From the NCBI GenBank assembly GCA_046075685.1, contig JBJTQP010000092.1:861-64860 (forward strand): a stretch of DNA of 64,000 nt, read 5' to 3'. Below the pieces are notes generated by a model, which saw nothing but the letters and a program-made list of their open reading frames with translations, did not search any database and was not told the DNA's origin. Both the position numbers and the translations under genes were made by a program. Every line of letters starts with the position of its first letter. Position 1 is the first letter of the stretch. Shown in pieces: positions 2,758 to 49,579 of this stretch. This stretch comes from Planctomycetaceae bacterium. Its GTDB lineage: Bacteria > Planctomycetota > Planctomycetia > Pirellulales > UBA1268.

Positions 2758-2790
2758 CCGGCCCGGATCGGCGGTGCCGATCCGGGCCGG
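2758..2790. terminator. Perfect 14-bp GC-rich hairpin between convergent genes (candidate bidirectional terminator)
   Basis: CCGGCCCGGATCGG (2758-2771), loop CGGTG, CCGATCCGGGCCGG (2777-2790). It lies 9 nt after the U32 stop and 31 nt after the stop of the minus-strand gene ending at 2821. There is no clear T-tract. Confidence 0.5.
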
Positions 2791-2820: not shown

Positions 2821-3957
2821 TCACTTCGAGAGCTTGGTGAGGGTCTCGACCATCGGCGTGACCACGGGGCCGAGCAGACCCTTGACACCCGGGATCGCCA
2901 TCACGGTGTCGATCACCTTCGACAGCAGGCCGAGGTTCTTGCCCACGAACTCAGCGAAGGCGGGCTTCTCCTCAGCCGGCAGCCGGCCGACCTCGTCCTC
3001 GAGCGACGTCAGCATCGGGGCGAGCTTCTCGAGCTCCGGCACCGCCAGGCGGGCGGTATCCTCGCTCGTGACGCCCTCGAGCACGCTCGTCAGTCCACCG
3101 AAGAGTTCCGTGGCGTTCTTGCCCACCCGGACCGCTTCCAGGAACTTGGGGTCGATCGAGAGCGAATCGATCACCGTGTCGGTGATGGTGCTGCCCTGCC
3201 GCTCGATCACCTCGGTGACTTCCTCGGTCACCGGGCCCACCCTGCGGGTGCCTTCAACGACCACCGCCTCGCCGGCCTTTTTGGCCTGGTTCTGGCTCCA
3301 GAGGTACCAGCCCAGACCGAGGGCTCCGAGGGCCAGCAGCGGCAGCAGCCAGCCGGGGAGGCCGCCCTGCTGCGGCTGGTGCGAGTGGCTGCCGTGACGG
3401 GCCGGCTCACTGGGACGGCCACCGCCCGTGCCACCGAAGTCGGCCAGCGAGAGGCCAGCGGGCAGGGCGCCGCGGATGTTGCCGGCCTGCTCGGAAAACA
3501 GCCGGGCGACGCCGGCGGCGTCGGGCTTGCCGGTGAACTGCTTGGCCACCATGCCCAGCACGATCGGCGCGAGCGAGGTGACGAGGGTCTTCATGATGCC
3601 CGGCTGCAGGCCGGCGAACGAGGCCAGCGTGCCGACCAGGCTCGACATCATGTTGCCGCCGCCGAGGAGCGACGTCAGCAGGTTGCCGCCGAGGCTCCCG
3701 AGGCCCGAGGCCTGGCTGCCGCCCAGCAGGCCGGCGAGGTTGCCGAGCATGCCGAGATCGAGGCCGCCCATCGCCTTCGCGAGCTGATCGGCGCCGCTGT
3801 TGGTCTGCGCCATCTTCCCGAACACGTTGAGCAGCGCCGGAACGGCCGCGCTGGTGGCGGTCTTGGTCTGCGACTCACTCGCTCCGATCAGGCCGCCGAG
3901 CTTGCTCAGCACGTCGGGCTTCATCAGCTGGCCGGCAATCAGGTCCGCAATATTCAT
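2821..3957 (-). CDS. DUF937-like protein with a central transmembrane helix
   Basis: 378-aa ORF. The N-terminus MNIADLIAGQLMKPDVLSKLGGLIGASESQTKTATSAAVPALL plus G/L-rich repeats resembles DUF937 (YidB-like) proteins. A hydrophobic segment WLLPLLALGALGLGWYLW is present. GGAG lies 7 nt upstream of the ATG. The antisense 408-aa ORF is Arg/His-rich junk. Confidence 0.6.
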   Translation of the reverse strand: MNIADLIAGQLMKPDVLSKLGGLIGASESQTKTATSAAVPALLNVFGKMAQTNSGADQLAKAMGGLDLGMLGNLAGLLGGSQASGLGSLGGNLLTSLLGGGNMMSSLVGTLASFAGLQPGIMKTLVTSLAPIVLGMVAKQFTGKPDAAGVARLFSEQAGNIRGALPAGLSLADFGGTGGGRPSEPARHGSHSHQPQQGGLPGWLLPLLALGALGLGWYLWSQNQAKKAGEAVVVEGTRRVGPVTEEVTEVIERQGSTITDTVIDSLSIDPKFLEAVRVGKNATELFGGLTSVLEGVTSEDTARLAVPELEKLAPMLTSLEDEVGRLPAEEKPAFAEFVGKNLGLLSKVIDTVMAIPGVKGLLGPVVTPMVETLTKLSK

Positions 3958-4191
3958 CGATTCACTCCAGAAGAAAGGAAACGGAAAAATCCATGGTCGG
4001 GGTCCCGCCTTCCGTGGCGAACCGATGACTGACCGGCACGCGCTGCGAGCCTCCAGTCAACGCTCACACGTTGTAGTGACGGCCCGGGCCGTCCGCAAAC
4101 CTGCGGAATAATCGCCATTTCCGGCACCGTTCGCCATCCGGCTCGGGAGCTCGAAGACGCCCTGCCTCCAGGTCCGTGATCCGGTGTGCCC

Positions 4192-4213
4192 AGACCCGGT
4201 GCCCACCGGGTCT
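4192..4213 (-). terminator. Hairpin just downstream of the ABC exporter stop (weak terminator candidate)
   Basis: AGACCCGGTG / CACCGGGTCT inverted repeat separated by 2 nt, 13 nt beyond the stop at 4226-4228. There is no T-tract. Confidence 0.3.
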
Positions 4214-4225
4214 CAGGCAGCAGCC

Positions 4226-7123
4226 TCACCAGTAGACATACTGCAAAAATCGCTCCCGGTCGGGTGCCGGCAGGTCGTCGACCTTCGGCACCACCCAGCG
4301 GTTCTCGTCGGTGTCGATCAGCATCCGGCCGCCGGTCCCGAAGTCGAACGCCTGTCCCTGCGTCCAGCGGGCCGTGAACTGTCGGCGGCCGATGTCCGTG
4401 TCGACGTCGAAATCGAGGTAGCCGTGGACGAGGCGGACGTCGTGCACCCGCCGGATCTCGCGGACCAGTGCGCGTCGTGCCGCGGCGGCGCGGAGCACAG
4501 CGCGGTCGGCGTCGGGCCAGTCGGCGAGGCGACGGATCATGCCGAGCTCCACCTCGTCGCCGTGCTCGTCCCAGCCGCGGATCGAGAGGTACTCCTCCGG
4601 ATGCGTCGCCGGAAACGCGCGGACGACGAAGATGGCCGTCGCCGCCTTGCCTGCGGGCTGCAGTTCGATGCGGTCGTGCGCGCCGAAGGCGAAGCGGCAC
4701 GTCCCGGGATCGAGCCACTCGATGCCCGCCGGCACCACGGTGGCAGCCGCAGGCTCCGGCTCCGCGGCAGCGGCTTCCTCGGCAAGCAGCGTGTCGACGG
4801 TGGGCCGCTTCGTGACCTGTGTCTGGATTCGCACGAGGCGGGCGTAGACCCCGTCGGCGGCGAGCAGTTCGGCGTGGCTGCCCTGCTCCACCAGTCGGCC
4901 GCGGTCGAAGGCGAGGATCCGGTCGGCATTGCGGAGCGTGGAGAGCCGGTGGGCGATGGCGATCGTCGTGCGGCCCCGGACGAGCACCGCCAGGGCCTCC
5001 TGGATCGCCTTCTCCGCCTCCGCGTCGATGTTGCTCGTGGCCTCGTCGAGCACCAGCACCCGGGGGTCGTAGAGGAGCGTGCGGGCGATCGACAGCCGCT
5101 GCTTCTCGCCGCCCGACAGCCCGGCGCCGTGCTCGCCGAGGAGCGTCTCGTAGGCCAGCGGCTGCCGACAGAGAAAGTCGTGCGCGCCGGCGGCCTTGGC
5201 GGCGGCGAGCCCCTCCTCGATCGTGGCCTGGGGCCGCCCGTAGGAGAGGTTTTTCCAGATCGTGCCGCGAAACAGGAACGAGTCCTGAAACACGATCCCC
5301 AGCCGCTCGCGGAGGTCGTGCGACGAGAGCCGGCGGATGTCGTGGCCGTCGACGGTGATCGAGCCCTCCTGCACGTCATGAAAGCGGGCCAGCAGGCTGA
5401 CGAGCGTGCTCTTGCCGGAGCCTGACCGGCCCACGATGCCGACCATCTCGCCGGCCGCCACGTCGAAGGAGACGTCGTGCAGCACCGGCTGGTTGCGGTC
5501 GTAGCCGAAGGTGACGTTGGCGAAGCGGATCGCGCCGCGGACATCCTGCCAGGGCTCGGGATGCGCCGGATCGGTGACCATCGCCGGCGTGTCGAGCAGC
5601 TCCAGCACCCGCTTGCTGCCGGACAGGAAGCTCGTCAGCCACGTGGTGAAGTTCGAGAGCGCCCCGAGGGGGGCGTAGAACATGGCGAGGTAGGCGAGGA
5701 AGGCGATCAGCTGGCCGAGGGTCATGCTGCCGCCGATCACGTCGCGGCCCCCGACGTACCAGACGATCAGGCCGCCGAGGCTGAAGACGATCTGCATCGA
5801 GGCCGCGTAGGTGGTGTTGGTGTGCTCCACCCACTGCCGCCAGCGACGGAGGTGATCGCTGGCGGCGTGAAAGCGGTCGAGCTCGCGGGACTCCTGGGCG
5901 AAGGCCTTGACCACGCGAATCCCGGAGAGCATGCCCGAGAGCGTGGTCATCTGCTTGCTGGCGGCGTCCCAGAGCCGGTAGTGCCGCGGGTAGACGTGCC
6001 TCCAGAAGATCCACGATCCGAGGATCACCAGCGGCACCGGGATGAGCGTGAAGGCGGCGAGCTTGGGGTTGATCCAGACGAGCATCGCCCCCACGCCCAC
6101 GAGCTGCACGATCTGGAGCAGGAAGCCCCCCGTGATCTGATGCATGAGCCCGTGCAGCACCTCGCTGTCGTGGGCCACACGGCTGATCATCGACCCCACC
6201 TGGTGGCGATCGTAGTAGGCCACGGAGAGGCCCTGGAGCTTGCGGACCATCTCCTCGCGGAGCGTGGACGTGATCCCGGAGCCGATCGCCGTGGTCAGCC
6301 GGCCCTTGATCACGCCGACGACGGCCAGGAGCACGCGGGAGAAGGCGAGTGCCAGCACCACGACGAGCAGGGCCGTCTTGAAGTCGGGCAGTCCGCCGGC
6401 CGTCTCGCCGGCCCGTGCCGAGAGGATGTCGTCGACCATGAACTGCTGAAGCTTGGGCGGCACGAGTTCCGCCACCACGCCCACGAACGTGAGCAGGCAG
6501 AGGATGATCGAGCCGCGGGCGTAGGGTGCCAGCAGCGTGCCCACGCGGCGGAGAATCTGCCCCTTCTGCAGGCAGCGGGGGCAGGCGTCGTCGGCGGCTT
6601 GCAGCCGCAGGCCGCACGAGCCGCAGGCCGGCGGGTCGAGCCGCTCATCGAGGCCTTCGAGTTGCCATGCCTCCCCGGCGGCCCGCCGCTCGCGGGATCG
6701 CTCCAGCGCCCGCGACACCTTGTGGAATCGCGTCGCCCGCGTGTTGGAGTAGCGGAGCAGGTCGATCCAGCCGCCCCCGGTCCGCACCTGGAGCGCACCG
6801 CCGCCCACGCCGGCGCACGTGCGGACCCGCTCGATGTCGGGCCAGGCCACGGCCCGCAGCGTGCGGCCGCCGTCGGTGACCGTGACGTGGTCGGCCGTGA
6901 CCACCAGCCACTCTGCCCCCGGATCGCCCGACAGGGCGACATCGGTGTCGATCGCCAGCAGGATGGGGCGATGGTTGAGCCCGGCGGCATCGAGGCGGTG
7001 GTGGACGTGGCCGGGGAGGGCGGCCGGTGGCCAGCCGTCGGCCGCCGTCGTATGCTCCTGCGAATCGGCGGTCGTGGTGATCGCGGTGTCCTTCGGGTCG
7101 GATTCGAGGAGGGTTTCGTCCAT
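4226..7123 (-). CDS. ABC exporter (fused TMD + NBD) with an N-terminal beta-rich domain, a zinc ribbon and a C-terminal DUF1854-like domain
   Basis: 965-aa ORF. Walker A GRSGSGKST, signature LSGGEKQR and Walker B LVLDEATS are present. Six hydrophobic helices precede the NBD. CGSC-x10-CPRC lies at about aa 168-185. The C-terminal ~190 aa (IEWLDPGTCRF...RFLQYVYW) resemble DUF1854. Confidence 0.9.
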   Translation of the reverse strand: MDETLLESDPKDTAITTTADSQEHTTAADGWPPAALPGHVHHRLDAAGLNHRPILLAIDTDVALSGDPGAEWLVVTADHVTVTDGGRTLRAVAWPDIERVRTCAGVGGGALQVRTGGGWIDLLRYSNTRATRFHKVSRALERSRERRAAGEAWQLEGLDERLDPPACGSCGLRLQAADDACPRCLQKGQILRRVGTLLAPYARGSIILCLLTFVGVVAELVPPKLQQFMVDDILSARAGETAGGLPDFKTALLVVVLALAFSRVLLAVVGVIKGRLTTAIGSGITSTLREEMVRKLQGLSVAYYDRHQVGSMISRVAHDSEVLHGLMHQITGGFLLQIVQLVGVGAMLVWINPKLAAFTLIPVPLVILGSWIFWRHVYPRHYRLWDAASKQMTTLSGMLSGIRVVKAFAQESRELDRFHAASDHLRRWRQWVEHTNTTYAASMQIVFSLGGLIVWYVGGRDVIGGSMTLGQLIAFLAYLAMFYAPLGALSNFTTWLTSFLSGSKRVLELLDTPAMVTDPAHPEPWQDVRGAIRFANVTFGYDRNQPVLHDVSFDVAAGEMVGIVGRSGSGKSTLVSLLARFHDVQEGSITVDGHDIRRLSSHDLRERLGIVFQDSFLFRGTIWKNLSYGRPQATIEEGLAAAKAAGAHDFLCRQPLAYETLLGEHGAGLSGGEKQRLSIARTLLYDPRVLVLDEATSNIDAEAEKAIQEALAVLVRGRTTIAIAHRLSTLRNADRILAFDRGRLVEQGSHAELLAADGVYARLVRIQTQVTKRPTVDTLLAEEAAAAEPEPAAATVVPAGIEWLDPGTCRFAFGAHDRIELQPAGKAATAIFVVRAFPATHPEEYLSIRGWDEHGDEVELGMIRRLADWPDADRAVLRAAAARRALVREIRRVHDVRLVHGYLDFDVDTDIGRRQFTARWTQGQAFDFGTGGRMLIDTDENRWVVPKVDDLPAPDRERFLQYVYW

Positions 7124-8918: not shown

Positions 8919-9713
8919 TCAGCGGCGGCGCTGGGCAAACAGCCAGTCGAGCACGGCGGGGTTGCGGTAGGCGGGCGTCCACGAGTCGTGGCCCACGCCC
9001 GGCAGTTCCGAGAAGACAGGCCGCCCGCCCGCCGCCGAAAGTGCGGCCATCATCCGCCGCGAGCCCTCCACCGGCACCACGGGGTCGTCGGCGCCGTGGA
9101 AGCACCAGATCGAAAGCGCTGCCAGCCGGGCTGCCGTCGCCTCGTCGCCGCCGCCGCAGATCGGCAGCACGGCCGCGAACCGCTCCGGATGGCGGGCGGC
9201 AAGATCCCAGCTGCCGTAGCCGCCCATCGACAGGCCCGTAAGGTAGATCCGGTCGGGGTCGACGGGCTCGGTGGCCAGCACCTCGTCGAGGGCGGCGACG
9301 GCGGCCGCCAGGTCGGCGGTCGGGGCGGGCGGCAGCGGTGCGGCGCGTTTCGTCTCCCAGTCGAGCATCGACCAGGCGTGGTCGGGACGGCACTGGGGCG
9401 CGACGAGGAAGCAGGGATGCCGCCGGCGGTTCTCCGGCTCCGCCATCCACCGCGGCAGAAACTTCAGCTGGGCCGCGTTGTCGGTACCCCGCTCGCCGGC
9501 CCCGTGCAGGAACAGCACGACGGGATGGCGGGCTCCGGGTTCGAGGGGTGCCGGCCGCAGCACGCGAAAGGGAAACTCCACCCTGGCATCGCCGTCCGCG
9601 ACGCGCACCGTCCGCGACTCGAAGCCCTCGGGCTCCTCGGCGACGAGGTGCGACACGGCCGGCATCAGGGCGGCTCCCGTGATCAGGGCGACGACGACGG
9701 CCTGCCGGGGCAT
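8919..9713 (-). CDS. Secreted alpha/beta hydrolase (esterase/peptidase-like)
   Basis: 264 aa with a signal-like N-terminus. LFLHGAGERG is present, along with the nucleophile elbow GLSMGG and FHGADDPVVP. The start lies 1 nt from the stop of the upstream J-domain gene. Confidence 0.8.
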   Translation of the reverse strand: MPRQAVVVALITGAALMPAVSHLVAEEPEGFESRTVRVADGDARVEFPFRVLRPAPLEPGARHPVVLFLHGAGERGTDNAAQLKFLPRWMAEPENRRRHPCFLVAPQCRPDHAWSMLDWETKRAAPLPPAPTADLAAAVAALDEVLATEPVDPDRIYLTGLSMGGYGSWDLAARHPERFAAVLPICGGGDEATAARLAALSIWCFHGADDPVVPVEGSRRMMAALSAAGGRPVFSELPGVGHDSWTPAYRNPAVLDWLFAQRRR

Positions 9714-9714
9714 C

Positions 9715-10413
9715 TCACCCCTCCCCGGCCGAGTCGCCGAGGACGAGGTTCACCCGGCGTGGCATCGTCATCCGCGCAAACATGCCGAGCGCTCCCTTCG
9801 GCAGGCCGAGAAACTCGAGCTTTTCAAACCAGCCCGGGATCTCGGCGGCGAGCTTGCCCACCTGGGTGCCCCGCAGGTCGAGGTGCCGCAGGCTTTTGAG
9901 GTCCTTGAACTGCAGCAGGCCCTCGTCGCTGAGCGAGCCGCCGGCGAGATCGAGCACCGCCAGATCCTTGAGCGAGTCGGCGCGGAAACCGAGCAGCACG
10001 GCGAACACGTCGTCGGCGCGGCCGTTCGCGAGCCTCACCGCCACGAGCTTGTCGGCGACGTGGCCGAAATCCTCGCCGAACGACCGCCGCAGCCAGTCGG
10101 TTTCTTCCATCTCGATGCTGCCGCCCCGTTCGATCGTCTCGGTCGCCACCTCCTGCTGCTGCGCATAGGCCTCGATCTTCGACGCCAGCCACTCCAGCTT
10201 GCTGGCCTTGAACTTCACGTACTCCGTGGCGTCGTCGAAGGCCTTCTGGAGACGGATGAACTCCTGCGGATCGCCGCCCCGATCGGGATGGGCCTTCATC
10301 GCCTTGGCCATGAACGCCTGCTTGACGTCTTCGACGGTCAGCGGGGGCCTGAGCCCGAGGATTGCGAGGCACTCGGGCGTCTGGAGGTCGGCGGACGAGG
10401 AGGCATGCGTCAT
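9715..10413 (-). CDS. J-domain (DnaJ-like, HPD motif) protein with C-terminal leucine-rich repeats
   Basis: ATG at 10413 lies within the longer 584-aa ORF. LAILGLRPPLTVEDVKQAFMAKAMKAHPDRGGD forms the J domain. The C-terminus has LKDLAVLDLAGGSLSDEGLLQFKDLKSLRHLDLRGTQV, an LRR pattern. The part of the ORF upstream of this ATG is low-complexity Ser/Arg junk that overlaps the opposite-strand PPIase. Confidence 0.75.
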   Translation of the reverse strand: MTHASSSADLQTPECLAILGLRPPLTVEDVKQAFMAKAMKAHPDRGGDPQEFIRLQKAFDDATEYVKFKASKLEWLASKIEAYAQQQEVATETIERGGSIEMEETDWLRRSFGEDFGHVADKLVAVRLANGRADDVFAVLLGFRADSLKDLAVLDLAGGSLSDEGLLQFKDLKSLRHLDLRGTQVGKLAAEIPGWFEKLEFLGLPKGALGMFARMTMPRRVNLVLGDSAGEG

Positions 10414-10576
10414 GTGGGGGCTCTGGGGAAAAGACCTGGGCAGACTACGCCACCGCGGCGGTGCCGTCCACGCTCGGCTTGCAACGCTCGGGTTGCCCGG
10501 GGCGGGCGAATCGCCTATCTCCCCAGCGCCGCCGCGAGGGCGATTCGGCCCGAGCGCGGCATCACGGAGGGCAGCC

Positions 10577-12523
10577 ATGGGCGTCGATGCAACGAGGTGG
10601 GGCTGGGTTCGGGAGGTTGCCGCGGCGGCGGTCATCGTGGCGGTCGGCATCGGCTGGCGGGCGCTGACGGGCACGCTGGAGGCGGATGCGAAGCCGCCCC
10701 AGGCGGTGGAGCCGCCGCCACCCGGGGCCAAGCCGGTGGCGATCGTCAACGGTGTCGAGATCACGTCCGACGATCTTGCCGCGGAGTGCCTCGCCCGCCA
10801 CGGAACCTCGGTGCTCGAGACGCTCGTCAACCGTCGGATCATCGAACAGGCCTGCCAGCGGGCGGGCATCACGATCTCGCCGCAGGACGTCTCCGCCGAG
10901 ATCGACGGCCTGGCGCGGCGGTTCAAGGTGCCGCGCGACAAGTGGCTGGAGATGATCCAGCAGGAGCGGGGGATCATGCCGCAGCAGTATGCCGACGACA
11001 TCGTCTGGCCGATGCTCGCGCTCCGCAGCCTCGCCCGCGGCGCCTCCGAGCCGACGGACGACGAACTGCGGCAGGCCTTCGAGAATCGGTTCGGCCCGGC
11101 CGTCAAGGCGCGGATCATCGTCAGCCGCACGCGGCCGGATGCGGAGGCCGTGCGGAAGCAGGCCCTCGCCGCGCCGGACGAGTTCGGCGCGCTCGCCCGC
11201 CAGCACTCCGTCGACGTCGGCAGCGCCAGTGCCAACGGCTGGGTGCATCCGATCCGCATGCACTCGGGAGACCCCGGGTTCGACCGCGTGGCCCTCGGAC
11301 TCGAGGAGGGGGCGATCTCGGACGTGGTGCAGGTCGCCGACCAGTTCATCGTGATCAAGTGCGAAGGCCGCCTGCCGGGGTCGGGGGCGAAGCCGGAGGA
11401 GGTGCGGCCACATCTCGCCGAGGAACTGCGGGAGCGGAAGAGCCGCCAGGTGTCGAGCGAAGTCTTCAAGAAGCTTCAGGACGCGACCGCCGTGGAGAAC
11501 GTGATGAACGATCCGGCCAAGGCAGCGGCACGGCCGGGCGTGGCGACGCTGGTCAACGGGCAGCCGGTATCGATCGAAGACGTGAAGGCGGCCTGCCTCG
11601 CCCGGCATGGCCGCGACGTGGTCGAGGTGCTGGTGACCCGCAGGATCGTGGAGCAGGCCCTCGCGAAGCAGCAGCAGGCCGTTTCGCAGGCCGATCTCGA
11701 CGCCGAGATCGCCCGGGCCGCGGCCCAGATGGGCTTCACCCGGGCCGACGGCTCCCCCGACACCGGCGCCTGGCTCGACCGCGTGACCCGCGAGGAGAAG
11801 GTGCCGCTGCGGCACTATCTCGAGGACGTCGTCTGGCCGACGGTGGCGCTCAAGAAGCTCGTGGGCAGCGTGCCGGTCTCGCAGGAGGATCTCGACAAGG
11901 CCTTCGCGGCCACGTTCGGGCCGCGGGCACGATGCCGGATCATCGTGCTCGACAACCAGAGGCGGGCCCAGGAGGTCTGGCAGATGGCCCGGCAGAACCC
12001 CACCGCCGAGCACATCGGTGCCCTGGCGGAGACCTACTCGGCCGATCCGACCACCCGCTCGCTGCGGGGCGAGGTGCCGTCGATCCAGCGCTGGGGAGGC
12101 CAGCCGACACTGGAGCGCGAGGCCTTCGCGCTCAAGCCGGGCGAGCTCTCGGGGGTCGTCCAGGTGGCCGACCGGTTCATGGTGATCTTCTGCGAGGGCT
12201 TCACGGAGCCGGCGAAGGTGACGTTCCAGGATGTGCGGAACGAGCTCTTCGACGACATCTTCGAGAAGAAGCAGCGGATCGAGATGGCGAGGCACTTCAC
12301 CCATCTCCGGGAGTCGGCCTCGATCGACAACTTCCTCGCCGGCACCAGCCAGTCGCCCACGCAGCCCGGCCGTGGCCGCCGGCCCGACGCCGACATGCCC
12401 GCCACGACCCTCTCGCGGGCCGAGGCGGCCGACCTCGCCCGGCCCCGAGCCGGCAGCGTCAAGGCCGCGGCAGACGGGGTGGTGCCCGCCGCCCACCAGG
12501 CGCCCGCGGTGTCGTCACCCTGA
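10577..12523 (+). CDS. Peptidyl-prolyl cis-trans isomerase, SurA/PrsA-like, with two parvulin modules
   Basis: ATG at 10577 is preceded by GGAGG, and an N-terminal TM anchor follows. Two SurA-N-like plus parvulin units are present (ARIIVSR...VVQVADQFIVIKCEGR and CRIIVLD...VVQVADRFMVIFCEG). Confidence 0.8.
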   Translation: MGVDATRWGWVREVAAAAVIVAVGIGWRALTGTLEADAKPPQAVEPPPPGAKPVAIVNGVEITSDDLAAECLARHGTSVLETLVNRRIIEQACQRAGITISPQDVSAEIDGLARRFKVPRDKWLEMIQQERGIMPQQYADDIVWPMLALRSLARGASEPTDDELRQAFENRFGPAVKARIIVSRTRPDAEAVRKQALAAPDEFGALARQHSVDVGSASANGWVHPIRMHSGDPGFDRVALGLEEGAISDVVQVADQFIVIKCEGRLPGSGAKPEEVRPHLAEELRERKSRQVSSEVFKKLQDATAVENVMNDPAKAAARPGVATLVNGQPVSIEDVKAACLARHGRDVVEVLVTRRIVEQALAKQQQAVSQADLDAEIARAAAQMGFTRADGSPDTGAWLDRVTREEKVPLRHYLEDVVWPTVALKKLVGSVPVSQEDLDKAFAATFGPRARCRIIVLDNQRRAQEVWQMARQNPTAEHIGALAETYSADPTTRSLRGEVPSIQRWGGQPTLEREAFALKPGELSGVVQVADRFMVIFCEGFTEPAKVTFQDVRNELFDDIFEKKQRIEMARHFTHLRESASIDNFLAGTSQSPTQPGRGRRPDADMPATTLSRAEAADLARPRAGSVKAAADGVVPAAHQAPAVSSP

Positions 12524-12532
12524 GGTGGGCCG

Positions 12533-14500
12533 CTACGGCGCCGGCATTTCCCAGGCCGTCTGCAGCGCGATGCCGGCGTCGTCGCTGCGGAGCGTGGTGG
12601 CCCCGATCCCGAACATCCCCTCCATCTCGTCGTCGCCCGGCAGCAGCTTCTGCGCTGCGGCGAGCATGTCGCGGTACGGCTCGGACACGTCCTCCGGCCC
12701 GAGCGACTTCAGCATCTCGCGGAGGATGCCCAGCGTGCCGCCGGTGCGGGAGCTGTCGCTGAGGCCGACCATCCGCGCGGGTTCCATGGGCAGGAGTTCG
12801 CCGGCGCGTCCGGGCACGTTGCTGTCTCGGAATGACGAGTCGCCCGCCGGCGGATTGCGAATCGCCGCGAGTGTCTTTTCGAGGGAGTCGGCACCGACGC
12901 CCACGACGAGGTGGTCCTGGCCGAGGAACACGGCCGGGCCGTCGGGAAGGCGGACACCGCGAAAGCCCTGCTCCTCCTGGAGTTCGCCTCCGGCCGCGGC
13001 GGCGAGCCGCTGGAGGATCCGGCCGAAGGGGCCCTCGTCGGCGACCCGCCAGACCACCGCCATGGCGTCGGCGAACTGCCGCGGGGCCGCACCGCCCTCC
13101 GCGTTGCGGGCCCGCCGGGCGGCCGCGACCGCCTCGGCGACCCGGGGAGGGTAGTTGACCAGCCAGTGCCGGCTGCCGAGCGACGAAAGCAGCGTCGGCA
13201 GATTCACGCCCAGCCAACCCTGGGCCTGCATCTCCACCGCGGTGAACAGGTTGGCCGATTCGGGGCCGCCCTCCGCCACCACGAACTCCTTGACCGTCTC
13301 GTAGGCCCGGCCGAGATCGAGCGACACCTGGGTGAAGTCGACGGCGTCCCGGGTCACGAACGGGGGCACGTCCGAGCCGTCACACGGCTGGTCGAGAATC
13401 CGCATCAGCGCGGTCCGCGGAGCGGGCAGCGAGACGAACAGTCCGCTGCGCAACCGGTCCTCGTCGAGCGCCTGCCGCCAGGCGATCGGGCCGAGGTCGC
13501 CGACGCCGACGGCGGCCATGCGCCGCCGCGTCTCTTCGTCGGCGAGCGTCCGCATGAGCACCCGGGGATCGACCACCACGTCGAGCAGCGGGACTCCCGC
13601 CGGAAGCGTCGCCGCCATCCCCGGCGCGGCCAGGGCGTCGGCCAGCGGCGCCGCATCGGCCGCGGCGTGCGCCGCGAGGAACCGCTCGAAGATATCCCGG
13701 GCGATGTCCCCGCCGCTCTCCGCGTCGAAGTCGCGGTCACCGGCCGCAGGCTTGGCGGTGCCGGCCCCTGCGGGGAGCGTCTGGCCGACGAGCAGCCGGC
13801 CGCCCAGCCGGGCGAGGAAGGCGTGCACGTGCCCCGTCTTCACGAGCTTCGCCTCGCGAACCCGTCGCTGGAGCTCCGCAAGGCGTCGTTCCACGGCCTC
13901 CTCGTCGGTGCCGTCACCGGTGATCTGGCTTGCCGGGTCGATGCCCATCACCGGCTCCACCATCCACAGCACCTCGTGCCCGGCAAGGTCGAGGTCGATC
14001 CGCCGCGTGGTGCCGGTCTCGTCGTCGGCGATGTCCTCGTCGAGCTTCCGCCGAGTGGCCTCGACCATGCGGAGAGCGGCCTCCTCGCCCGGCTCCAGCC
14101 AGGCGAGCCCTGTCACCAGCGGCGGCAGGCCGCCCTCGCGAGTCCGGATCACGGAGCCGAGTCCCATGTCGCCGCGGAAGGCCGCGGTGAGATCTGCGGT
14201 GCTCAGCCCATACTTCGCGAGCGACGTCTCGAGATCCTCGTCGTCGGGCGTGCCGTCCGCCCGGGCCGCGTCGAGCGCGAGCTTCCAGATCCCCTCGAGC
14301 CTGCGTTCGGAGAGGGCCACCGCCCCGAACTTCGTCCGCGTTCGCAGGGCTTCGAGGAACCCGGCGGGCTGCGGCATCCGCAGCATGAACGCGGTGTCTT
14401 CGGGGAGGCACTCCCAGCTCGGACGTGGATCGGCCGCCGGGCCCACCGCCGCGATGCCGACCAGGCACAGAGATGCCGCGAGACGAACCACACACCGCAT
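12533..14500 (-). CDS. Hypothetical secreted protein (no confidently recognised domain)
   Basis: 655-aa ORF with signal peptide MRCVVRLAASLCLVGIAAVGPAA. High GC3 in this frame. It is the last gene of a co-directional cluster. Confidence 0.65.
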   Translation of the reverse strand: MRCVVRLAASLCLVGIAAVGPAADPRPSWECLPEDTAFMLRMPQPAGFLEALRTRTKFGAVALSERRLEGIWKLALDAARADGTPDDEDLETSLAKYGLSTADLTAAFRGDMGLGSVIRTREGGLPPLVTGLAWLEPGEEAALRMVEATRRKLDEDIADDETGTTRRIDLDLAGHEVLWMVEPVMGIDPASQITGDGTDEEAVERRLAELQRRVREAKLVKTGHVHAFLARLGGRLLVGQTLPAGAGTAKPAAGDRDFDAESGGDIARDIFERFLAAHAAADAAPLADALAAPGMAATLPAGVPLLDVVVDPRVLMRTLADEETRRRMAAVGVGDLGPIAWRQALDEDRLRSGLFVSLPAPRTALMRILDQPCDGSDVPPFVTRDAVDFTQVSLDLGRAYETVKEFVVAEGGPESANLFTAVEMQAQGWLGVNLPTLLSSLGSRHWLVNYPPRVAEAVAAARRARNAEGGAAPRQFADAMAVVWRVADEGPFGRILQRLAAAAGGELQEEQGFRGVRLPDGPAVFLGQDHLVVGVGADSLEKTLAAIRNPPAGDSSFRDSNVPGRAGELLPMEPARMVGLSDSSRTGGTLGILREMLKSLGPEDVSEPYRDMLAAAQKLLPGDDEMEGMFGIGATTLRSDDAGIALQTAWEMPAP

Positions 14501-17823: not shown

Positions 17824-19305
17824 TCACTCGAGTTCGGGCAGCATCTGCTCCGTGAGCGCCGCCTCGCGGAGCTTTTCCAGCGCCTTGGCCTCGATCTGGC
17901 GCACCCGCTCCTTCGTCACGCCGAGCGCGGAGCCGACCTCCTTGAGCGTCTGCGGCTCGCGGTCGTGGTCGAGGCCGTACCGGCGGATGATGATCGTCTG
18001 CTCCCGGGGCTCGAGGCGGTCGAGGAACTTCCCCACCTGGGCGAGCCGGTCGCTGGCCGCGAGCCGCTCCTGCAGCTCATCGGAGCGGCGGTCGGCGGCC
18101 GACTGGAGAAGCTCCATGTCGGCGGCCCGGAAGCGGTCGCGGTGCTTGTGCTCGTCGGGGATCGACCGGGCGAAGTTCTTCATGATCGCCCACGACGCAT
18201 AGGTGCTGAACTTGTTGCCGCGGGCGTAGTCGAACTTCTCCACCGCGCGGATCAGCGACATGTTGCCGTCGCTGACGAGGTCGAAGAAGCTGTCGCCGGG
18301 CGACACCCGTCGCTTGGCGATCGACACCACGAGCCGCAGGTTGGCGCGGACGATCCGGTTCTTGATCTCCACGATCTCCTCGGCGAGCCGCTCGACCTGG
18401 TCGAGCAGCCGCGAACTCGGCCGCTCGGGGTCGATCTGCTCCCGCAGCTGCACCGCCTTGTACTTCAGGTAGTTGAACTTCCGGAACAGCCAGACCTCCT
18501 GCTCGCGGGTGAGCAGGGGCACCTCGTAGAGGCTGGCGAGGTAGGCGGGCAGGCCGTTGGGCCGCCGCACACGCTTCGCGTCGGTGACGCCCGGGAACGG
18601 CTGGTCGACCACCTTCTCGGCGCTTGCCCGGGCGAAGAGCGCGTTGGGAATGAAGTCGAGAGGCAGCTGCATCACGTGCTCCGCCCGCTGTGCGAGGATC
18701 ACGCGGTAGATGCTCGCCTTGGAGCGGTGGTAGCGGCGGGCGATCGACTCGACCGGCTCGCCGGCGAGGTGGTGCTGGTAGATGCGGGCCCGGCTCTCCG
18801 GCCGCAGGTGGCCGTCGGCCGCCGGAAAGACCGCCGTGTCGGGGTGCTCCTGGTCGTATCGCTTGAGCGTGTAGCGGATCGTCTCCACGCTGCGGCCGAG
18901 CCGGTCGGCGATGCGGCGGTGGACGTCGGCGGGGCAGGCGCCCGCGATTGCGAGCCGCCGCGCCCAGGAGACGATCTTCTCGTGCTCGTCGTCGCTCAGC
19001 TGGCTGAATCGTCCGCCGCGCTCGATCCGCAGCGGGTTGTCGCGGACGAATCGTTCCACGGCGCTGGCCAGGAAGCCCACGCGGCGTCGGCCGTCGACCG
19101 TGTACCGCTGGGCGACCAGACCATGATCCCGCCACCGGGAAATCGTCTTCGTGGAGACGTTGAAGCGGCGGGCAAGATCCTCGATCGAGAGCACCTGCTC
19201 CCCGGGCGGAACGTCGCCACGCGGGCCGAGATCCTCCGCAGGCCGATCGGCACGGCCGTCGTCGAACATTCTCACCAAACCATCACCGGCAGCACTGGAA
19301 CGCAT
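17824..19305 (-). CDS. Sigma-70 family RNA polymerase sigma factor with an N-terminal HTH-containing extension
   Basis: Region 2 (RANLRLVVSIAKRR...DLVSDGNMSLIRAVEKFDYARGNKFSTYASWAI) and region 4 (LKEVGSALGVTKERVRQIEAKALEKLR) are present. The N-terminal ~190 aa include LSIEDLARRFNVSTKTISRWRDHGLV, an HTH. The start is uncertain: ATG at 19305 or 19269, and the ORF stays open up to 19800. Confidence 0.85.
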   Translation of the reverse strand: MRSSAAGDGLVRMFDDGRADRPAEDLGPRGDVPPGEQVLSIEDLARRFNVSTKTISRWRDHGLVAQRYTVDGRRRVGFLASAVERFVRDNPLRIERGGRFSQLSDDEHEKIVSWARRLAIAGACPADVHRRIADRLGRSVETIRYTLKRYDQEHPDTAVFPAADGHLRPESRARIYQHHLAGEPVESIARRYHRSKASIYRVILAQRAEHVMQLPLDFIPNALFARASAEKVVDQPFPGVTDAKRVRRPNGLPAYLASLYEVPLLTREQEVWLFRKFNYLKYKAVQLREQIDPERPSSRLLDQVERLAEEIVEIKNRIVRANLRLVVSIAKRRVSPGDSFFDLVSDGNMSLIRAVEKFDYARGNKFSTYASWAIMKNFARSIPDEHKHRDRFRAADMELLQSAADRRSDELQERLAASDRLAQVGKFLDRLEPREQTIIIRRYGLDHDREPQTLKEVGSALGVTKERVRQIEAKALEKLREAALTEQMLPELE

Positions 19306-19880
19306 GACGTTTCTCCCGCTGGCGACCGTGCCAGCCGTTGTCGCCGGCACTGAGAACGGGCCGGGCATGCTGCCCGAACCGACCGCCGCGGCCGACGAAT
19401 GACTGTGGAAACCACGTCCCATGTGCCAGGCGACCATCCGTGGACGCCGATCCTGCTGAAAGGACGTGCCTGTTATACGAGCCGTCCGGTGAAGCGGTTC
19501 GTGGACAACTGGGATTCTTGAGCTTTTTTCAATTGACACCCGCGGCCTTCGCGGCTCGCGAGTGACGCAAGTCTCAATCGGGCAATGGTTTGCGACCGAT
19601 TTCGCCGCTGAGTCGATTCTCGTTTTCTGGCCGCGGCACTGGTTTTGGGCCTGCAAAACATGTGCTGGAAGGTCGCCGGACACTCGTGCAAAGCGCCTCC
19701 GGCGCGGTGACTGGCGGACTCTGGCGGGCTTCCGATCGGCAGTGACGAAATCTTTGCCGTCGACGGACGAAGGAACCACCGGGGTCCGCGGACTGATCAC
19801 GCGGGGTGGATGACCGTTCTGGGGCGTGCCGGAGGTTCCCGATGCGTTGCGAGTGGCCGTGGGTCCGAAGAACGCCGGGG

Positions 19881-21464
19881 ATGCGCGGCTTCGTCGTCGG
19901 GGCCTTGGTGGCCGGCGTGGTCGGCATGATGACTGCCGGTGGGGTCACCCTGCTGGCAGAGGAGACGGCCACCGACGTGACGCTCGATGCCGCCGCGGGC
20001 GACGAAGAGGCTTCCAGCCGCGACACGCAACCCGGCGCCGAGTCCGACCTCGCCGAGGAGGCGGAACCCGTCGCCGAGCCTGATGAGGGCCCTGCGACCG
20101 AGAGCACGGTCGCGGCACCGTCGGAACCTGCTGCAGGTCGATCCCGACGCGTCCGCCTGAAGCTCGACGTCATCGGTGAGATCTTCGCCCCGGCGGGGCG
20201 CGACGTGCCTCCGGTGCGGCGCCCCATCACCGTGGACGCGAGGTTCGACTTCGTCGAATCGTCGGTCGGCGCATCCGAGGCCGCCACGCGCCGCTACCGC
20301 GACGCCTCTGCCGACATCCGGGTGGATGACGCGCTGAGCAGGCTGCGACTGCCGGCGGAGGCCCGCGAGGTTCGTGTCATGGTCGTGGGGGCGACGCCGA
20401 TGCCCTACCTCGCAGCCGGGTTTTTGTCGCGCGACGAGTTTGACCTGCTCGAGACGCCGTTCGATCCGCTGCTGCTCGACCGCATCCTGCCCGACGATCC
20501 CGCCATTCCTGCTGACGGCACCTGGTCGATCGCCCCCGACACGGTCGCCGGACTCCTGGCGATCGACACCGTAGAATCCGGAGGCCTCGAGGCGCGGCTG
20601 CGGGAGGTGGTCGACGGTCTGGCCACCGTGTCGATTTCAGGAATCGTCGACGGTGCCGCCAACGGCGTGCCGACGCACGTCACCGTCGAGGGGTCCCTGG
20701 TGGCGGCGGCGAGCGAGACGGCGGCGGGCATGCGACTCGACCGCGGTGTGACGAGCCTGGCGATGACCATGCGGGAACGCCGCGAGGCCAGTCACGTCGC
20801 CCCCGGCTTCGACGTGGAGGCGAAACTCGCTGCTGCCGTCGCGCCGATCGAGCCGGAAGCGTTGGCGGCCAACGCCGATGCCGGAGGCCTTGCCGCGGAG
20901 AGCCGTCCGGGCGGCGTGGGCCGGCCGGGTTTTGTCTGGCAGCATGACGCGGCCGGACGGTACGACCTGGTGCACGATTCCCGCTGGCGGGTGATCGAGG
21001 ATGGTCCGGATGGTCTCGTGATGCGGCTGCTCGATCGCGGAGCCCTCGTCGCGCAGTGCGCGATCGTCGCCCTGCCCCGCGGGCCGGCGCAGTCGCCGGC
21101 CACGATCGCCGAGGTGGAGCGTGACCTCGAGCGGTCATTGGCGGGGCAGTTCGCCAGGTTCGAGCACTCCTCGGAGGCGGTCCGCAGCGACGGCACCCGC
21201 CTGGTGCGGGTGGTGGCCGGCGGCAGCGTGGACGGCCGGCCCTTTCGCTGGGCCCACCACGTGCTGACCAACGCCGCCGGTCAGCGGCTGGCGGCCACCT
21301 TCACGGTGGAGGAGGCGATGCAGAAGCGATTCGGGGAGACGGACCGGGACCTCGTGGACGGCCTCATGCTGCCCCCGCCGGCTGCAGGAGCGGAAACGGC
21401 CTCGTCTGCCGGGGGTGACGGCGACCGCGAGGCACGGCTGCCGCGGGAATCCCGGACGCCTTGA
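19881..21464 (+). CDS. Hypothetical membrane-anchored/secreted protein with an acidic N-terminal linker
   Basis: The ORF runs 19806-21464. The ATG at 19881 gives [26 protein letters not shown], a signal/anchor sequence. No domain was recognised. Confidence 0.6.
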
Positions 21465-43713: not shown

Positions 43714-43852
43714 GCGGGTGTCTCCGGGCGACGCGGGAAGGATGATCGGGTGAGAGCCGGCTGGAACCGGGTTTTCCACGCCAAGGCGATCGCGTATCTT
43801 ACGGTTTCCCGCCTCGCACCTGGGCTGCGGCGGGATTCGCCGCTCGGGAAGG

Positions 43853-46168
43853 ATGTGGCCGATGCTGTCGCTGCTGATGTGGGTGCTGCCCTGCCGGGTT
43901 CGGCGGCCGTGGTTCGCGGGCAGGGCCGTGCTGGCCTCGGTCGGGGTGCTCATCGGTGCCGCCCCGTTGCGGGCCGACGATTCAGCGGCGGTAGAGCGGC
44001 TCGGGGTGGCGGTGATCCCACAGGACGCGGCATTCGTGTCGTCATCGCTGCGGCTGCGGGAGCAGTACGAAGCGGTCGTCGGCAGCAACGCCTTCACGTC
44101 GATCCTCGCGCTGCCGGCAGTGCGCCGGGCCCTCGACTCGCTCGAGGAGCAGCGGTTCACGCCCGGCAGCGCGCTCTCCACGTTCGACACCTTCATGCAG
44201 ATGCCCGAGAACGCCGACGCGGCGGAGCTGCTTGCCGACATGGTGGCGACCGACACGTTCGTCTACGGCGAGCCCTCGTGCGTCTCGTTCTGGAAGCTGG
44301 TCCGCAAGCTCGCCGAGGCGCAGCAGCGGGCGGGCGTCGCCCCGGCCGCCGCCGAGTCTGACATCGTGGTGGAGAGCATCGAGGACGACGACCCTCCGGC
44401 CGCGGACGAGATGGTCGGGGCGGCCGATGCATCGCTCCAGGCGCGGGCGCTGATCGCCACGCTGGCCGACAACCTCGACCTCATCGTGGTGCCGGACGTG
44501 GTCTGGGGTTTCACGACCACGAAGCGGGATCTGGCCGATGATCAGATCCGGAGGATCGAATCGCTCGTCGGGTCGATGCTGCAGGCCGCCCCGGACCTCG
44601 CGCGCAGCGTGGCCCGACGGAAGACGGCCGGCGGGGAGATGCTCACGCTGACGCTCGACGGGGAGAGCATTCCCTGGGCTGAACTGGAGCGGGAGACGGT
44701 GAACCTCACCGGCGACGCCGCCGCGGCGGCGAAGGTCTTCGGGCGGCTCAAGACGCTCGACCTGGTGGTCGCGATCGGCGTGGTGGGCGACCGGATGATC
44801 GTCTCGCTCGGCGATTCCGCCGACCATCTCGACAAACTGGCGACCCCGGAGAGCGGCCGCCGCGGGCTGCTCTCACTGCCGGCCTTCGCGCCGCTGCTGG
44901 CGGACGCCGGCAGACGGCTCACGGGCATCGCCTACATGAGCGAGCAGCTCTGCGACGCAGCTGGTTCGTCACGGTCCGACCTGGACGCGATGCTCGGCGT
45001 CATCGATCAACTTGACGAGACGACAGGCCTGACGGCGGAGGCCCGCAGCGATGTGCGGGGCCTGGCGGAGAAGGCGGTCGAGGAGTGGGCGAAGCGGCTG
45101 CCCGAGGCGGGGCCATGGATGTCGTACGCCTTCATGACCGACGATGGCTACGAGGGCTATTCGTGGAACTGGGCGCGGAACCAGCCCTTCGACGGGTCCC
45201 GGCGGCTCGACCTCCTCGAGCATGCTGGCGGCGCGCCGCTGGCGGTCGCCGTCTCGCGGATCAAGGACGACCCGGCCGGCTTCGACGCGATGGTGGAACT
45301 CGTGCAGGCCGCGTGGGGAATCGTGGGTCGGCACGCGGGAGCGGCGCTGGACGACGGGCAGCGGCAGGCGTTCGACACGTTCGGCGGGATGGGGAGCCGG
45401 CTGGCGACCATCGTGCGGGACAAGCTCGGGCGGTCGCTTGCCGACGGGCAACTGGGGTTCGTGCTCGACGCGAAGGGCAAGTCGCGGAAGCTGCAGGGCG
45501 ACCTGCCGCCGTCGGCCGATCCGCTGCCGCTCGTGGAGCCGGCCCTGGTGCTGTCGATCGCCGACCCGAAGCTGTTCCGCGAGGGCCTCAGCGACGTCTT
45601 CGCGCTCGGCGACGAGTTCACCGCCGCCCTGAAGCGGCTCGAACCGGGCTCCGTGCCGGAGGGGTATCGGATTCCCGAGCCGGAGAAGTCGAAGACCGAT
45701 GAGGGCTCCGTCTGGTCATGGAAGCTCGTGAACAGCCGGCTCGACGATCAGGTCCGCCCGGCGATCGGCGTGGGCGAGCGGACTGCGGTGCTGTCGCTGG
45801 CTCCGAAACAGGCCGGCCGGCTGTTGGCGGAGAGCCGGTTGGAGACGGGCAGCCAAATGGCCAGGTTCGACGAGCCGCTGGCGGCGGCGGCGGCCTGCGA
45901 CTTCGCGGGTGTGGTGGACGCCATCGAGCCGTGGATCGTCTACGTCACACGGTATGGCTGCGTGCAGGAACGCGAGGGCGTCGTCGATCCGGACGCGGAA
46001 CTGTCGGCCGCCGATGAGACCCCGCAGGCCAAGGAGGTGCTCGAGCACGTGCACGTGGTGCTCGCGGCACTGAAGTCGCTGCGGGCCGGCGTGTCCGAGA
46101 CCACCACGCGGGACGACGCCCTGGTCACCCACTGGCGGAACGTGATCCGCGACATTCCGGCGAAATGA
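43853..46168 (+). CDS. Hypothetical secreted protein (no recognised domain)
   Basis: 771-aa ORF with a signal-like N-terminus ...AVLASVGVLIGAAPLRADD. High GC3 in this frame. It is divergent from ftr. Confidence 0.65.
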   Translation: MWPMLSLLMWVLPCRVRRPWFAGRAVLASVGVLIGAAPLRADDSAAVERLGVAVIPQDAAFVSSSLRLREQYEAVVGSNAFTSILALPAVRRALDSLEEQRFTPGSALSTFDTFMQMPENADAAELLADMVATDTFVYGEPSCVSFWKLVRKLAEAQQRAGVAPAAAESDIVVESIEDDDPPAADEMVGAADASLQARALIATLADNLDLIVVPDVVWGFTTTKRDLADDQIRRIESLVGSMLQAAPDLARSVARRKTAGGEMLTLTLDGESIPWAELERETVNLTGDAAAAAKVFGRLKTLDLVVAIGVVGDRMIVSLGDSADHLDKLATPESGRRGLLSLPAFAPLLADAGRRLTGIAYMSEQLCDAAGSSRSDLDAMLGVIDQLDETTGLTAEARSDVRGLAEKAVEEWAKRLPEAGPWMSYAFMTDDGYEGYSWNWARNQPFDGSRRLDLLEHAGGAPLAVAVSRIKDDPAGFDAMVELVQAAWGIVGRHAGAALDDGQRQAFDTFGGMGSRLATIVRDKLGRSLADGQLGFVLDAKGKSRKLQGDLPPSADPLPLVEPALVLSIADPKLFREGLSDVFALGDEFTAALKRLEPGSVPEGYRIPEPEKSKTDEGSVWSWKLVNSRLDDQVRPAIGVGERTAVLSLAPKQAGRLLAESRLETGSQMARFDEPLAAAAACDFAGVVDAIEPWIVYVTRYGCVQEREGVVDPDAELSAADETPQAKEVLEHVHVVLAALKSLRAGVSETTTRDDALVTHWRNVIRDIPAK

Positions 46169-49466: not shown

Positions 49467-49579
49467 GCTGGCAGTGGCTCCACGAGTCCGCGGATGAAAG
49501 GCACGTCGAACGTGGTCGAATGTACCAGAGGCGCGCGCGGGCGGAAGCCGCGGGGCCGGTTGCCCCGCGCGGAGGTGGG

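Follow-up and report, generated by a model that had tools for sequence, protein, structure and literature searches.

Within a stretch of 64,000 nucleotides taken from a Planctomycetaceae bacterium (contig JBJTQP010000092.1), referred to here as the window, a single gene on the minus strand encodes a 965-residue ATP-binding cassette (ABC) protein. By a modest balance of probability, it is a homodimeric exporter of the ABCB type, belonging to a distinct and widespread family, with its obligate partner DUF1854 fused on and with accessory modules that recruit or gate a cytoplasmic cargo. Two hallmarks would set this family apart. The first is a cytoplasmic N-terminal region in which a PH-like domain is followed by a zinc ribbon with four cysteines, the elbow helix and the first transmembrane helix (TM1) coming directly after it, and the second is the cytoplasmic partner DUF1854, which would be obligate. 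In most phyla DUF1854 would be a separate gene, whose start overlaps the stop codon of the transporter, and in the Pirellulales/Planctomycetia a linker of low complexity would connect it to the C-terminal end of the ATPase domain.

The open reading frame (ORF) runs without interruption from ATG to stop over 965 codons (7123→4226, minus strand), as seen both in the ORF list and in its translation. The coordinates 4226-7123 given in the original prediction are exact, and only the strand had to be corrected to minus; the plus-strand reading of the same interval was discarded, its translation being nonsense. The GC content at the third codon position is 0.93, which marks it as a real gene. The first 45 residues form a leader that is probably disordered. 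Despite the poor conservation of this segment, its first 39 codons show a third-position GC content of 0.87, and homologues share with the protein the N-terminal pattern MDE..TAITTTA..QEHTA, so that the leader is taken to be translated and the ATG at 7123 to be a credible start. The whole protein is 100% identical to one from a Planctomycetaceae metagenome-assembled genome (MAG), named by NCBI as a "DUF1854 domain-containing protein".

As read from its sequence, the core of the protein is an ordinary ABCB/MsbA-like half transporter, with catalytically complete motifs, which must dimerise. ABC_membrane (PF00664) covers residues 206-486 (139 bits, cut-off 28, E 3.1e-40), the hydropathy profile contains six hydrophobic peaks between residues 204 and 490, and ABC_tran (PF00005) was matched, also above its gathering score, over residues 548-697 (116 bits, E 2.5e-33). 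Moreover, all the ATPase motifs are present: the Walker A motif GRSGSGKS (565-572), the Q-loop glutamine Q613, the signature LSGGE (669), the Walker B motif VLVLDE (689-694), including the catalytic glutamate, and the H-loop IAHR (723-726). An N-terminal PF00664 domain combined with this full motif set is what characterises a half transporter of the ABCB type (type IV fold), and the original prediction of an MsbA-type half transporter with intact Walker A, Walker B and signature motifs is borne out by the Pfam domains, by every motif it quoted and by the six hydrophobic spans. The best solved relatives of the core, according to a sequence search of the PDB, are plant ABCB19, P-glycoprotein, Sav1866, TM287/288 and TmrAB. 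With MsbA, Sav1866 and TmrAB the protein has in common the six-helix membrane domain, the C-terminal ATPase domain, all the motifs and an expected homodimeric state (340 bits to Sav1866, 2hyd), whereas those exporters lack both the N-terminal extension of about 200 residues, made up of the PH-like domain and the zinc ribbon, and the C-terminal extension of about 195 residues, made up of the linker and DUF1854.

Such a core would also suit a transporter of the MsbA/Sav1866 type that serves either as a housekeeping flippase for lipids, glycolipids or amphiphiles or for the export of drugs. In that case the PH-like domain would sense lipids of the inner leaflet, DUF1854 would autoinhibit or otherwise regulate the ATPase, in a manner comparable with that of the C-terminal regulatory domains of MalK or MetN, and neither module would recognise a cargo. 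The strong similarity of the core to MsbA-related, MsbA, Sav1866 and TmrAB exporters fits this explanation, as do the unusually conserved membrane domain (88% mean identity, in homologues whose overall identity is 71-100%) and the single syntenic locus, set among housekeeping genes, across many Pirellulales; in addition, many eukaryotic PH domains bind lipids. Nevertheless, the scores fall short of the MsbA equivalog cut-offs (403.5 bits against 602 for TIGR02203, 331.5 against 867 for NF008381), as they do for the MsbA_rel model (422 bits against 780), and no lipid A or lipopolysaccharide genes are adjacent. The strict pairing of the N-terminal domain with DUF1854 across phyla and the link of a sister family to a polymer synthetase, both described below, point to a dedicated cargo, and a flippase or drug exporter of this kind is considered unlikely.

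Regarding the region before TM1, an alignment of residues 40-200 with 29 diverse relatives (27-61% identity) was used for AlphaFold2 prediction. The model obtained, with a predicted local distance difference test score (pLDDT) of 89.7, contains seven beta strands followed by a C-terminal helix (in model numbering, strands 17-20, 33-36, 40-45, 48-54, 60-66, 69-76 and 79-87, and helix 88-109). After this capping helix the model places the cysteine knuckles and then the elbow helix, residues 187-198, which leads into TM1. When the model was compared with the PDB by Foldseek, the top 50 matches were dominated by PH, PTB and FERM-F3 domains, the PH matches including those of GRK2, p190RhoGEF, TAPP1 and TFIIH p62; a sequence search of the PDB with the N-terminal region alone gave matches at chance level only. 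The conserved motifs of the PH-like domain are TD, WL.xT, VGxGxLQ, RYSN and F133. The knuckle pair, C167-G-S-C170-x10-C181-P-R-C184, was found as a regular-expression match, and none of its four cysteines varies among 20 diverse full-length relatives or among 30 N-terminal domains, in any of the alignments (A1, A2 and A4). Pfam zinc-ribbon families were matched by most of the relatives (DZR by 22 of 30 and Zn_Ribbon_1 by 11 of 30, best E 1.3e-5), the score of the protein itself being weak (E 0.056). The assignment of this region to a PH-like domain plus a zinc ribbon is graded as a confident prediction from the model. Both elements had been anticipated by the original prediction, the first as a beta-rich segment of PH type, now recovered as seven strands and a helix with neighbours in the PH superfold, and the second as a CGSC-x10-CPRC zinc ribbon, a motif which is present with its four cysteines invariant across the family.

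The C-terminal region had likewise been suspected of resembling DUF1854, and this was settled by Pfam, since DUF1854 (PF08909) was matched over residues 831-955 with 67.2 bits, well above the gathering score of 26.8, covering positions 4-123 of the 130 in the profile. Mean identity over residues 771-825, which include the linker, is 0.48. In the AlphaFold2 model of the tail (pLDDT 87.7, predicted template modelling score 0.55) two beta-rich halves (residues ~810-884 and ~887-962) are predicted, both closed by a helix, and the invariant elements of the module are WLxP, ExG, D..NR and a C-terminal Y.YW. The Foldseek comparison of the tail model with the PDB gave no convincing fold match, and the sequence search of the PDB with the tail alone gave chance-level matches only. 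A word-indexed homologue search, also with the tail alone, returned mostly planctomycete fragments and a few verrucomicrobial ones, with no distant stand-alone DUF1854, and a tblastn search of PLSDB plasmids with the tail and the N-terminal region, seeking an annotated proteobacterial example, found no match. A kinship between the N-terminal domain and DUF1854 was also considered and rejected, the profile-profile probability being 0.6%.

Evidence for DUF1854 as a partner comes from the distribution of the family. The best 120 clusters of homologues (71-100% identity, 908-1037 residues) all carry the same three Pfam domains. The N-terminal domain alone, in an exhaustive HMMER search, retrieved 309 clusters at 50% identity, in which it is nearly always N-terminal and the full-length matches have either ~720-780 residues (unfused) or ~900-1005 residues (fused). 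A species scan was also carried out, taking one genome per species and querying with the N-terminal domain plus the transmembrane region, and relatives were found in at least 581 species genomes. The best 80 of these loci belong mostly to MAGs of Pirellulales/Planctomycetia, with others from Brocadiia, Dependentiae (Vermiphilus), Bdellovibrionales, Latescibacterota and Gemmatimonadota, and their content was read with local hidden Markov models (HMMs) of both modules. The fusion was present in 61 of the 80 and a separate DUF1854 ORF lay immediately downstream in 9, two of which look like frameshifted fusions; 10 loci were cut by contig ends, and a counter-example, meaning an ABC gene with the N-terminal domain and without DUF1854, appeared in none. 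In two long-read Pirellulales MAGs (L057 and L073) the fused gene was seen broken into 2-3 ORFs in different frames, probably through assembly frameshifts.

In five unfused loci, four from the species genome set and one metagenomic (L075, L079, L081, L083 and L098), the start of DUF1854 overlaps the stop of the ABC gene as ATGA or GTGA. This overlap reads as a signature of translational coupling, and it implies that a one-base change could create an ABC-DUF1854 fusion. The metagenome loci seeded from unfused members follow the same pattern: wherever a strong N-terminal-domain ABC gene was accompanied by sufficient downstream sequence, a DUF1854 ORF was always in the locus, adjacent to the ABC gene in all but one (L087). 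A divergent sister group of ABC proteins of 776-800 residues (L089-L091, L096, L097 and L099-L102), reaching only ~14-18 bits with the HMM of the N-terminal domain, showed no DUF1854 within 10 kb of its genes and may have lost both canonical modules together. Since the pairing holds in genomes and in metagenomes, and is absent only where the N-terminal domain is degenerate, the canonical N-terminal domain and DUF1854 travel together. As a separate observation, in L088 a second ABC exporter of 898 residues (2967-5660, plus strand), with an N-terminal extension of ~290 residues missed by the HMM of the N-terminal domain, lies 4 kb upstream of the pair formed by the N-terminal-domain ABC gene and DUF1854.

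The original prediction had itself allowed that its interest would be weakened if the architecture proved to be common and already functionally assigned. The former is the case: more than 120 protein clusters and the 61 species loci mentioned above contain it, the family is very strongly conserved in Pirellulales, and fusions of this kind are frequent in Planctomycetota. The latter is true only in part, as curators at NCBI, NCBIfam and Pfam have catalogued the architecture, and the function given is tentative and concerns a sister subfamily.

In this sister subfamily, DUF1854 from Acidovorax and Cupriavidus was found to be cofit with an ABC transporter and with cphA/cphA', and the proposal was made by Price et al. 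(bioRxiv 10.1101/072470) of a polymer efflux, that is, the export of the amino-acid polymer made by CphA; according to the same authors, DUF1854-ABC fusions in some genomes had already been noticed by Pfam curators. No other literature on DUF1854 was found. The best NCBIfam models for both halves of the planctomycete protein come from this context, namely NF052233, "cyanophycin metabolism-associated ABC transporter" (CphA_assoc_ABC), for the ABC part, and NF052234, "cyanophycin metabolism-associated DUF1854 family protein" (CphA_assoc_prot), for the tail (residues 775-965). The core scores ~110 bits higher with NF052233 than with the next model, MsbA_rel. The alignment covers positions 29-753 of the 766 in the model and residues 50-777 of the protein, and its start at residue 50 indicates that the N-terminal domain is part of the model.

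Together with the reported cofitness, these matches could be taken to mean that the protein is the planctomycete orthologue of the cyanophycin-associated transporter, exporting a polymer of the cyanophycin kind, built from Asp and Arg by a CphA-type synthetase whose gene would lie elsewhere in the genome. However, both scores lie far below the equivalog cut-offs (534.4 bits against 880 for NF052233 and 45.5 against 150 for NF052234), and ten other diverse members of the N-terminal-domain family also fail NF052233, with 670 bits at most or below the reporting limit of E ≤ 1e-150. Regarding the synthetase, no Mur_ligase or ATP-grasp domain was detected by Pfam in the 10 largest ORFs of the window or in 20 large neighbouring ORFs of distant loci. 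The GTNGKT P-loop motif is typical of Mur-type ligases, and a scan for G[TS]NGK[TSG] matched no ORF of at least 200 residues in 1.68 Mb, comprising the window and 117 related loci, to which the search was confined; a genomic association with cphA or cphA' was not found within that set either. The Acidovorax/Cupriavidus system and the planctomycete protein are alike in the N-terminal domain, the membrane domain, the ATPase domain and the DUF1854 partner, but the former consists of two proteins, whereas the latter is one polypeptide, below both cut-offs and with no cphA-like gene nearby. For these reasons a cyanophycin-linked function is not simply transferable, and such an orthologue is judged distinctly improbable. 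The hallmark arrangement, with DUF1854 fused to, or immediately downstream of, a PH-like and zinc-ribbon ABC protein, is found in the planctomycete protein, which by sequence comparison is a member of a broader DUF1854-associated exporter family, whereas its membership of the cyanophycin-linked equivalog is not demonstrable. A neighbouring cyanophycin synthetase is an improbable source of its cargo.

How the two accessory modules could work is suggested by other exporters. The HlyB/PCAT exporters also possess an extra cytoplasmic domain before TM1, a C39 or C39-like domain which docks cargo. Its fold is papain-like, whereas that of the planctomycete domain is PH-like and is accompanied by an extra C-terminal module, with no membrane-fusion or outer-membrane partner nearby. 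In Wzt, the ATPase of the O-antigen ABC exporter, a C-terminal beta-rich domain recognises a polymer made in the cytoplasm. The position of a beta-rich domain on the C-terminal side of an exporter ATPase makes it a mechanistic analogy for DUF1854, although Wzt belongs to a different class of ABC exporters, with a separate Wzm permease, and no similarity in fold or sequence to DUF1854 was detected. Finally, DdE and DdF, two PH-domain proteins of the enterocin DD14 system, are required for the ABC export of a leaderless bacteriocin (PMC8657885); these act on the cytoplasmic side but are separate Firmicutes proteins, and the comparison with the planctomycete PH-like module is an analogy and not a sign of family membership. 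The C39 domains, the C-terminal domain of Wzt and the PH-domain proteins of bacteriocin export make a recruiting or gating role plausible.

According to the favoured explanation, the gene would provide one half of a homodimeric, ATP-driven exporter with the type IV fold. The fusion fixes a 1:1 stoichiometry, so that beneath the membrane each dimer would have both modules, PH-zinc-ribbon and DUF1854, in two copies. DUF1854 would be a stoichiometric subunit docking on or near the ATPase domains, and the PH-like/zinc-ribbon module would be situated at the membrane-cytoplasm interface, beside the elbow helix. By analogy with the systems above, these cytoplasmic modules probably recruit and/or gate a cargo made in the cytoplasm, probably a peptide or a polymer, which would then be moved across the inner membrane by ATP hydrolysis. 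The original prediction had likewise proposed a possible gated or regulated export system.

Several observations weigh against this explanation. The Foldseek matches to the PH superfold, obtained with a predicted structure, reach a probability of ~1.0 but only modest E values (~2e-3) and TMq values of 0.40-0.46, the latter being low partly because the query also spans the zinc ribbon and a helix. Pfam contains no model of the PH-like domain itself; the protein matched none of its bPH families, and among 30 relatives only three gave a weak match to bPH_3 (best E 3.4e-3). Zinc binding is deduced from the cysteine pattern only. When the neighbouring ORFs of 84 loci were clustered, all the conserved neighbours belonged to close relatives only, and none common to the close, mid and far groups emerged that would point to a cargo. 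A regulatory or lipid-sensing role of the modules fits the data equally well. A bolder version of the export reading, in which a cytoplasmic receptor or cage is built jointly from the PH-zinc-ribbon and DUF1854 modules, is rated as rather improbable. Cargo-gated ABC exporters of polymers or peptides made in the cytoplasm would then be a class of their own, extending across Planctomycetota and several other phyla, with a cargo unrelated to cyanophycin and possibly tied to the planctomycete envelope, and the cphA-linked proteobacterial systems would be one specialised branch of it.

The coordinates of the gene, its modules and the neighbouring features are collected in Table 1.

Table 1. Position of the ABC-DUF1854 gene, its modules and neighbouring features in the window (aa, amino acid residues).
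Feature	Position	Strand	Remarks
U32 peptidase gene, 844 aa	215-2749	+	Two Peptidase_U32 domains flanking DUF3656; resembles TrhP and UbiU
Terminator-like hairpin	2758..2790	-	15-bp stem with 13 GC pairs; between the convergent DUF937 and U32 peptidase genes
DUF937 gene, 378 aa	2821..3957	-	Pfam DUF937, E 6.4e-19; downstream of the ABC gene, same strand
Complete coding sequence, 965 aa + stop	4226..7123	-	PH-like domain, zinc ribbon, transmembrane domain, nucleotide-binding domain, linker, DUF1854
DUF1854 module, aa 801-965	4229..4723	-	Pfam PF08909
Ala/Glu/Pro-rich linker, aa 771-800	4724..4813	-	Poorly conserved; seam of the gene fusion
Nucleotide-binding domain, aa 530-770	4814..5536	-	Pfam ABC_tran and intact motifs
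Six-helix transmembrane domain, aa 204-490	5654..6514	-	Pfam ABC_membrane (PF00664) and hydropathy
Zinc-ribbon-type knuckle pair, aa 163-188	6560..6637	-	Just before the elbow helix, aa 187-198
PH-like domain, aa ~52-148	6680..6970	-	Strands aa 56-126, capping helix aa 127-148
N-terminal leader, aa 1-45	6989..7123	-	Poorly conserved (120 homologues: mean identity 0.27, gaps 37%)

The neighbours of the ABC gene in the window encode a DUF937 protein, a protein with a 3-keto-disaccharide-hydrolase domain, CysK and a double U32 peptidase. The 3-keto-disaccharide-hydrolase-domain gene and cysK are divergent to the ABC gene, and the U32 peptidase gene is convergent to the DUF937 gene. As the original prediction had stated, the gene stands alone, in the sense that no permease, membrane-fusion or outer-membrane partner is found in this neighbourhood. 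The ABC and DUF937 genes are separated by 268 bp, a consensus scan revealed no terminator-like site between them, and the only strong hairpin downstream of the ABC gene in the same scan, which is a pattern match only, is the one following the DUF937 gene; it could act in both directions. The lack of a terminator between the two genes and the strong hairpin after the second, pattern matches though they are, suggest that both may be co-transcribed. The DUF937 protein contains the DUF937 domain at its N-terminus, a Gly-rich stretch and one predicted membrane helix at residues ~200-222, and its C-terminal ~150 residues gave no Pfam match. The gene order is the same in two close relatives (L001 and L002), where the U32 peptidase gene is also kept beside the locus. 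The DUF937 adjacency was seen in 23 close loci and in no mid or far ones, and its limitation to close relatives indicates that the DUF937 and U32 adjacency is likely mere synteny. A sigma-70 promoter scan found none, as expected for the phylum, and a reading of the gene as part of a defence system was rejected, PADLOC having given only generic ABC-ATPase similarity.

These neighbours bear on a further explanation, in which an unfolded protein or a leaderless peptide would be secreted by a system resembling type I secretion, with the ABC protein as its inner-membrane part, the PH-like domain in the role of C39 and the DUF937 protein as candidate partner or cargo. The N-terminal accessory domain is placed where HlyB/PCAT have their C39 or C39-like domain, the DUF937 gene follows the ABC gene on the same strand without an intervening terminator, and the requirement for PH-domain proteins in leaderless bacteriocin export (PMC8657885) offers a precedent. 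The protein reaches 360.7 bits with TIGR01846 (type_I_sec_HlyB), below the cut-off of 725.55, and neither a HlyD-type nor a TolC-like gene is present in the window neighbourhood. In two distant relatives, by contrast, a gene for a HlyD-family membrane-fusion protein directly follows the ABC-DUF1854 pair (L106, 12635-14188, and L107, 5338-6774, both on the plus strand), in L106 with a gene for a CBM9-domain protein after it. This arrangement fits export and hints that some branches are tripartite, envelope-spanning exporters. A jackhmmer search for a membrane-fusion gene across 117 loci detected only these two cases, and with the DUF937 adjacency being probably synteny, a type I secretion-like system is held to be very unlikely for the planctomycete protein.

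Apart from this locus, a few features of the window deserve mention. A 706-residue ORF (17824-19944, minus strand) combines HTH_23, HTH_38 and HTH_28 with C-terminal sigma-70 regions 2 and 4, making it an unusually long sigma-factor-like protein. Large ORFs of ~650-1160 residues at 43754-46168 (+), 47277-49655 (-), 9271-12762 (+) and 12533-14500 (-) were matched by neither Pfam nor NCBIfam models at the thresholds applied. The ORF at 9271-12762 is probably spurious, as it largely overlaps, in another frame, the ORF of a SurA-like rotamase (10169-12523); this ORF and the one at 12533-14500 failed the filter on third-codon-position GC content.

Nothing in known ABC exporter biology is overturned by these results. 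What is added here is the fold assignment of the N-terminal domain, its strict co-occurrence with DUF1854, the seam along which coupled genes pass into a fusion and a caution over the cyanophycin label. In fact, the cofitness with cyanophycin genes in two betaproteobacteria is the only functional lead for the family, and this label should not be extended to the proteins of planctomycetes. With its strict pairing of the PH-like/zinc-ribbon module and DUF1854, the family offers a concrete and testable picture of an exporter that has two accessory modules of its own on the cytoplasmic side, and the natural fusion found in Planctomycetota constitutes a convenient single-chain target for structural work.

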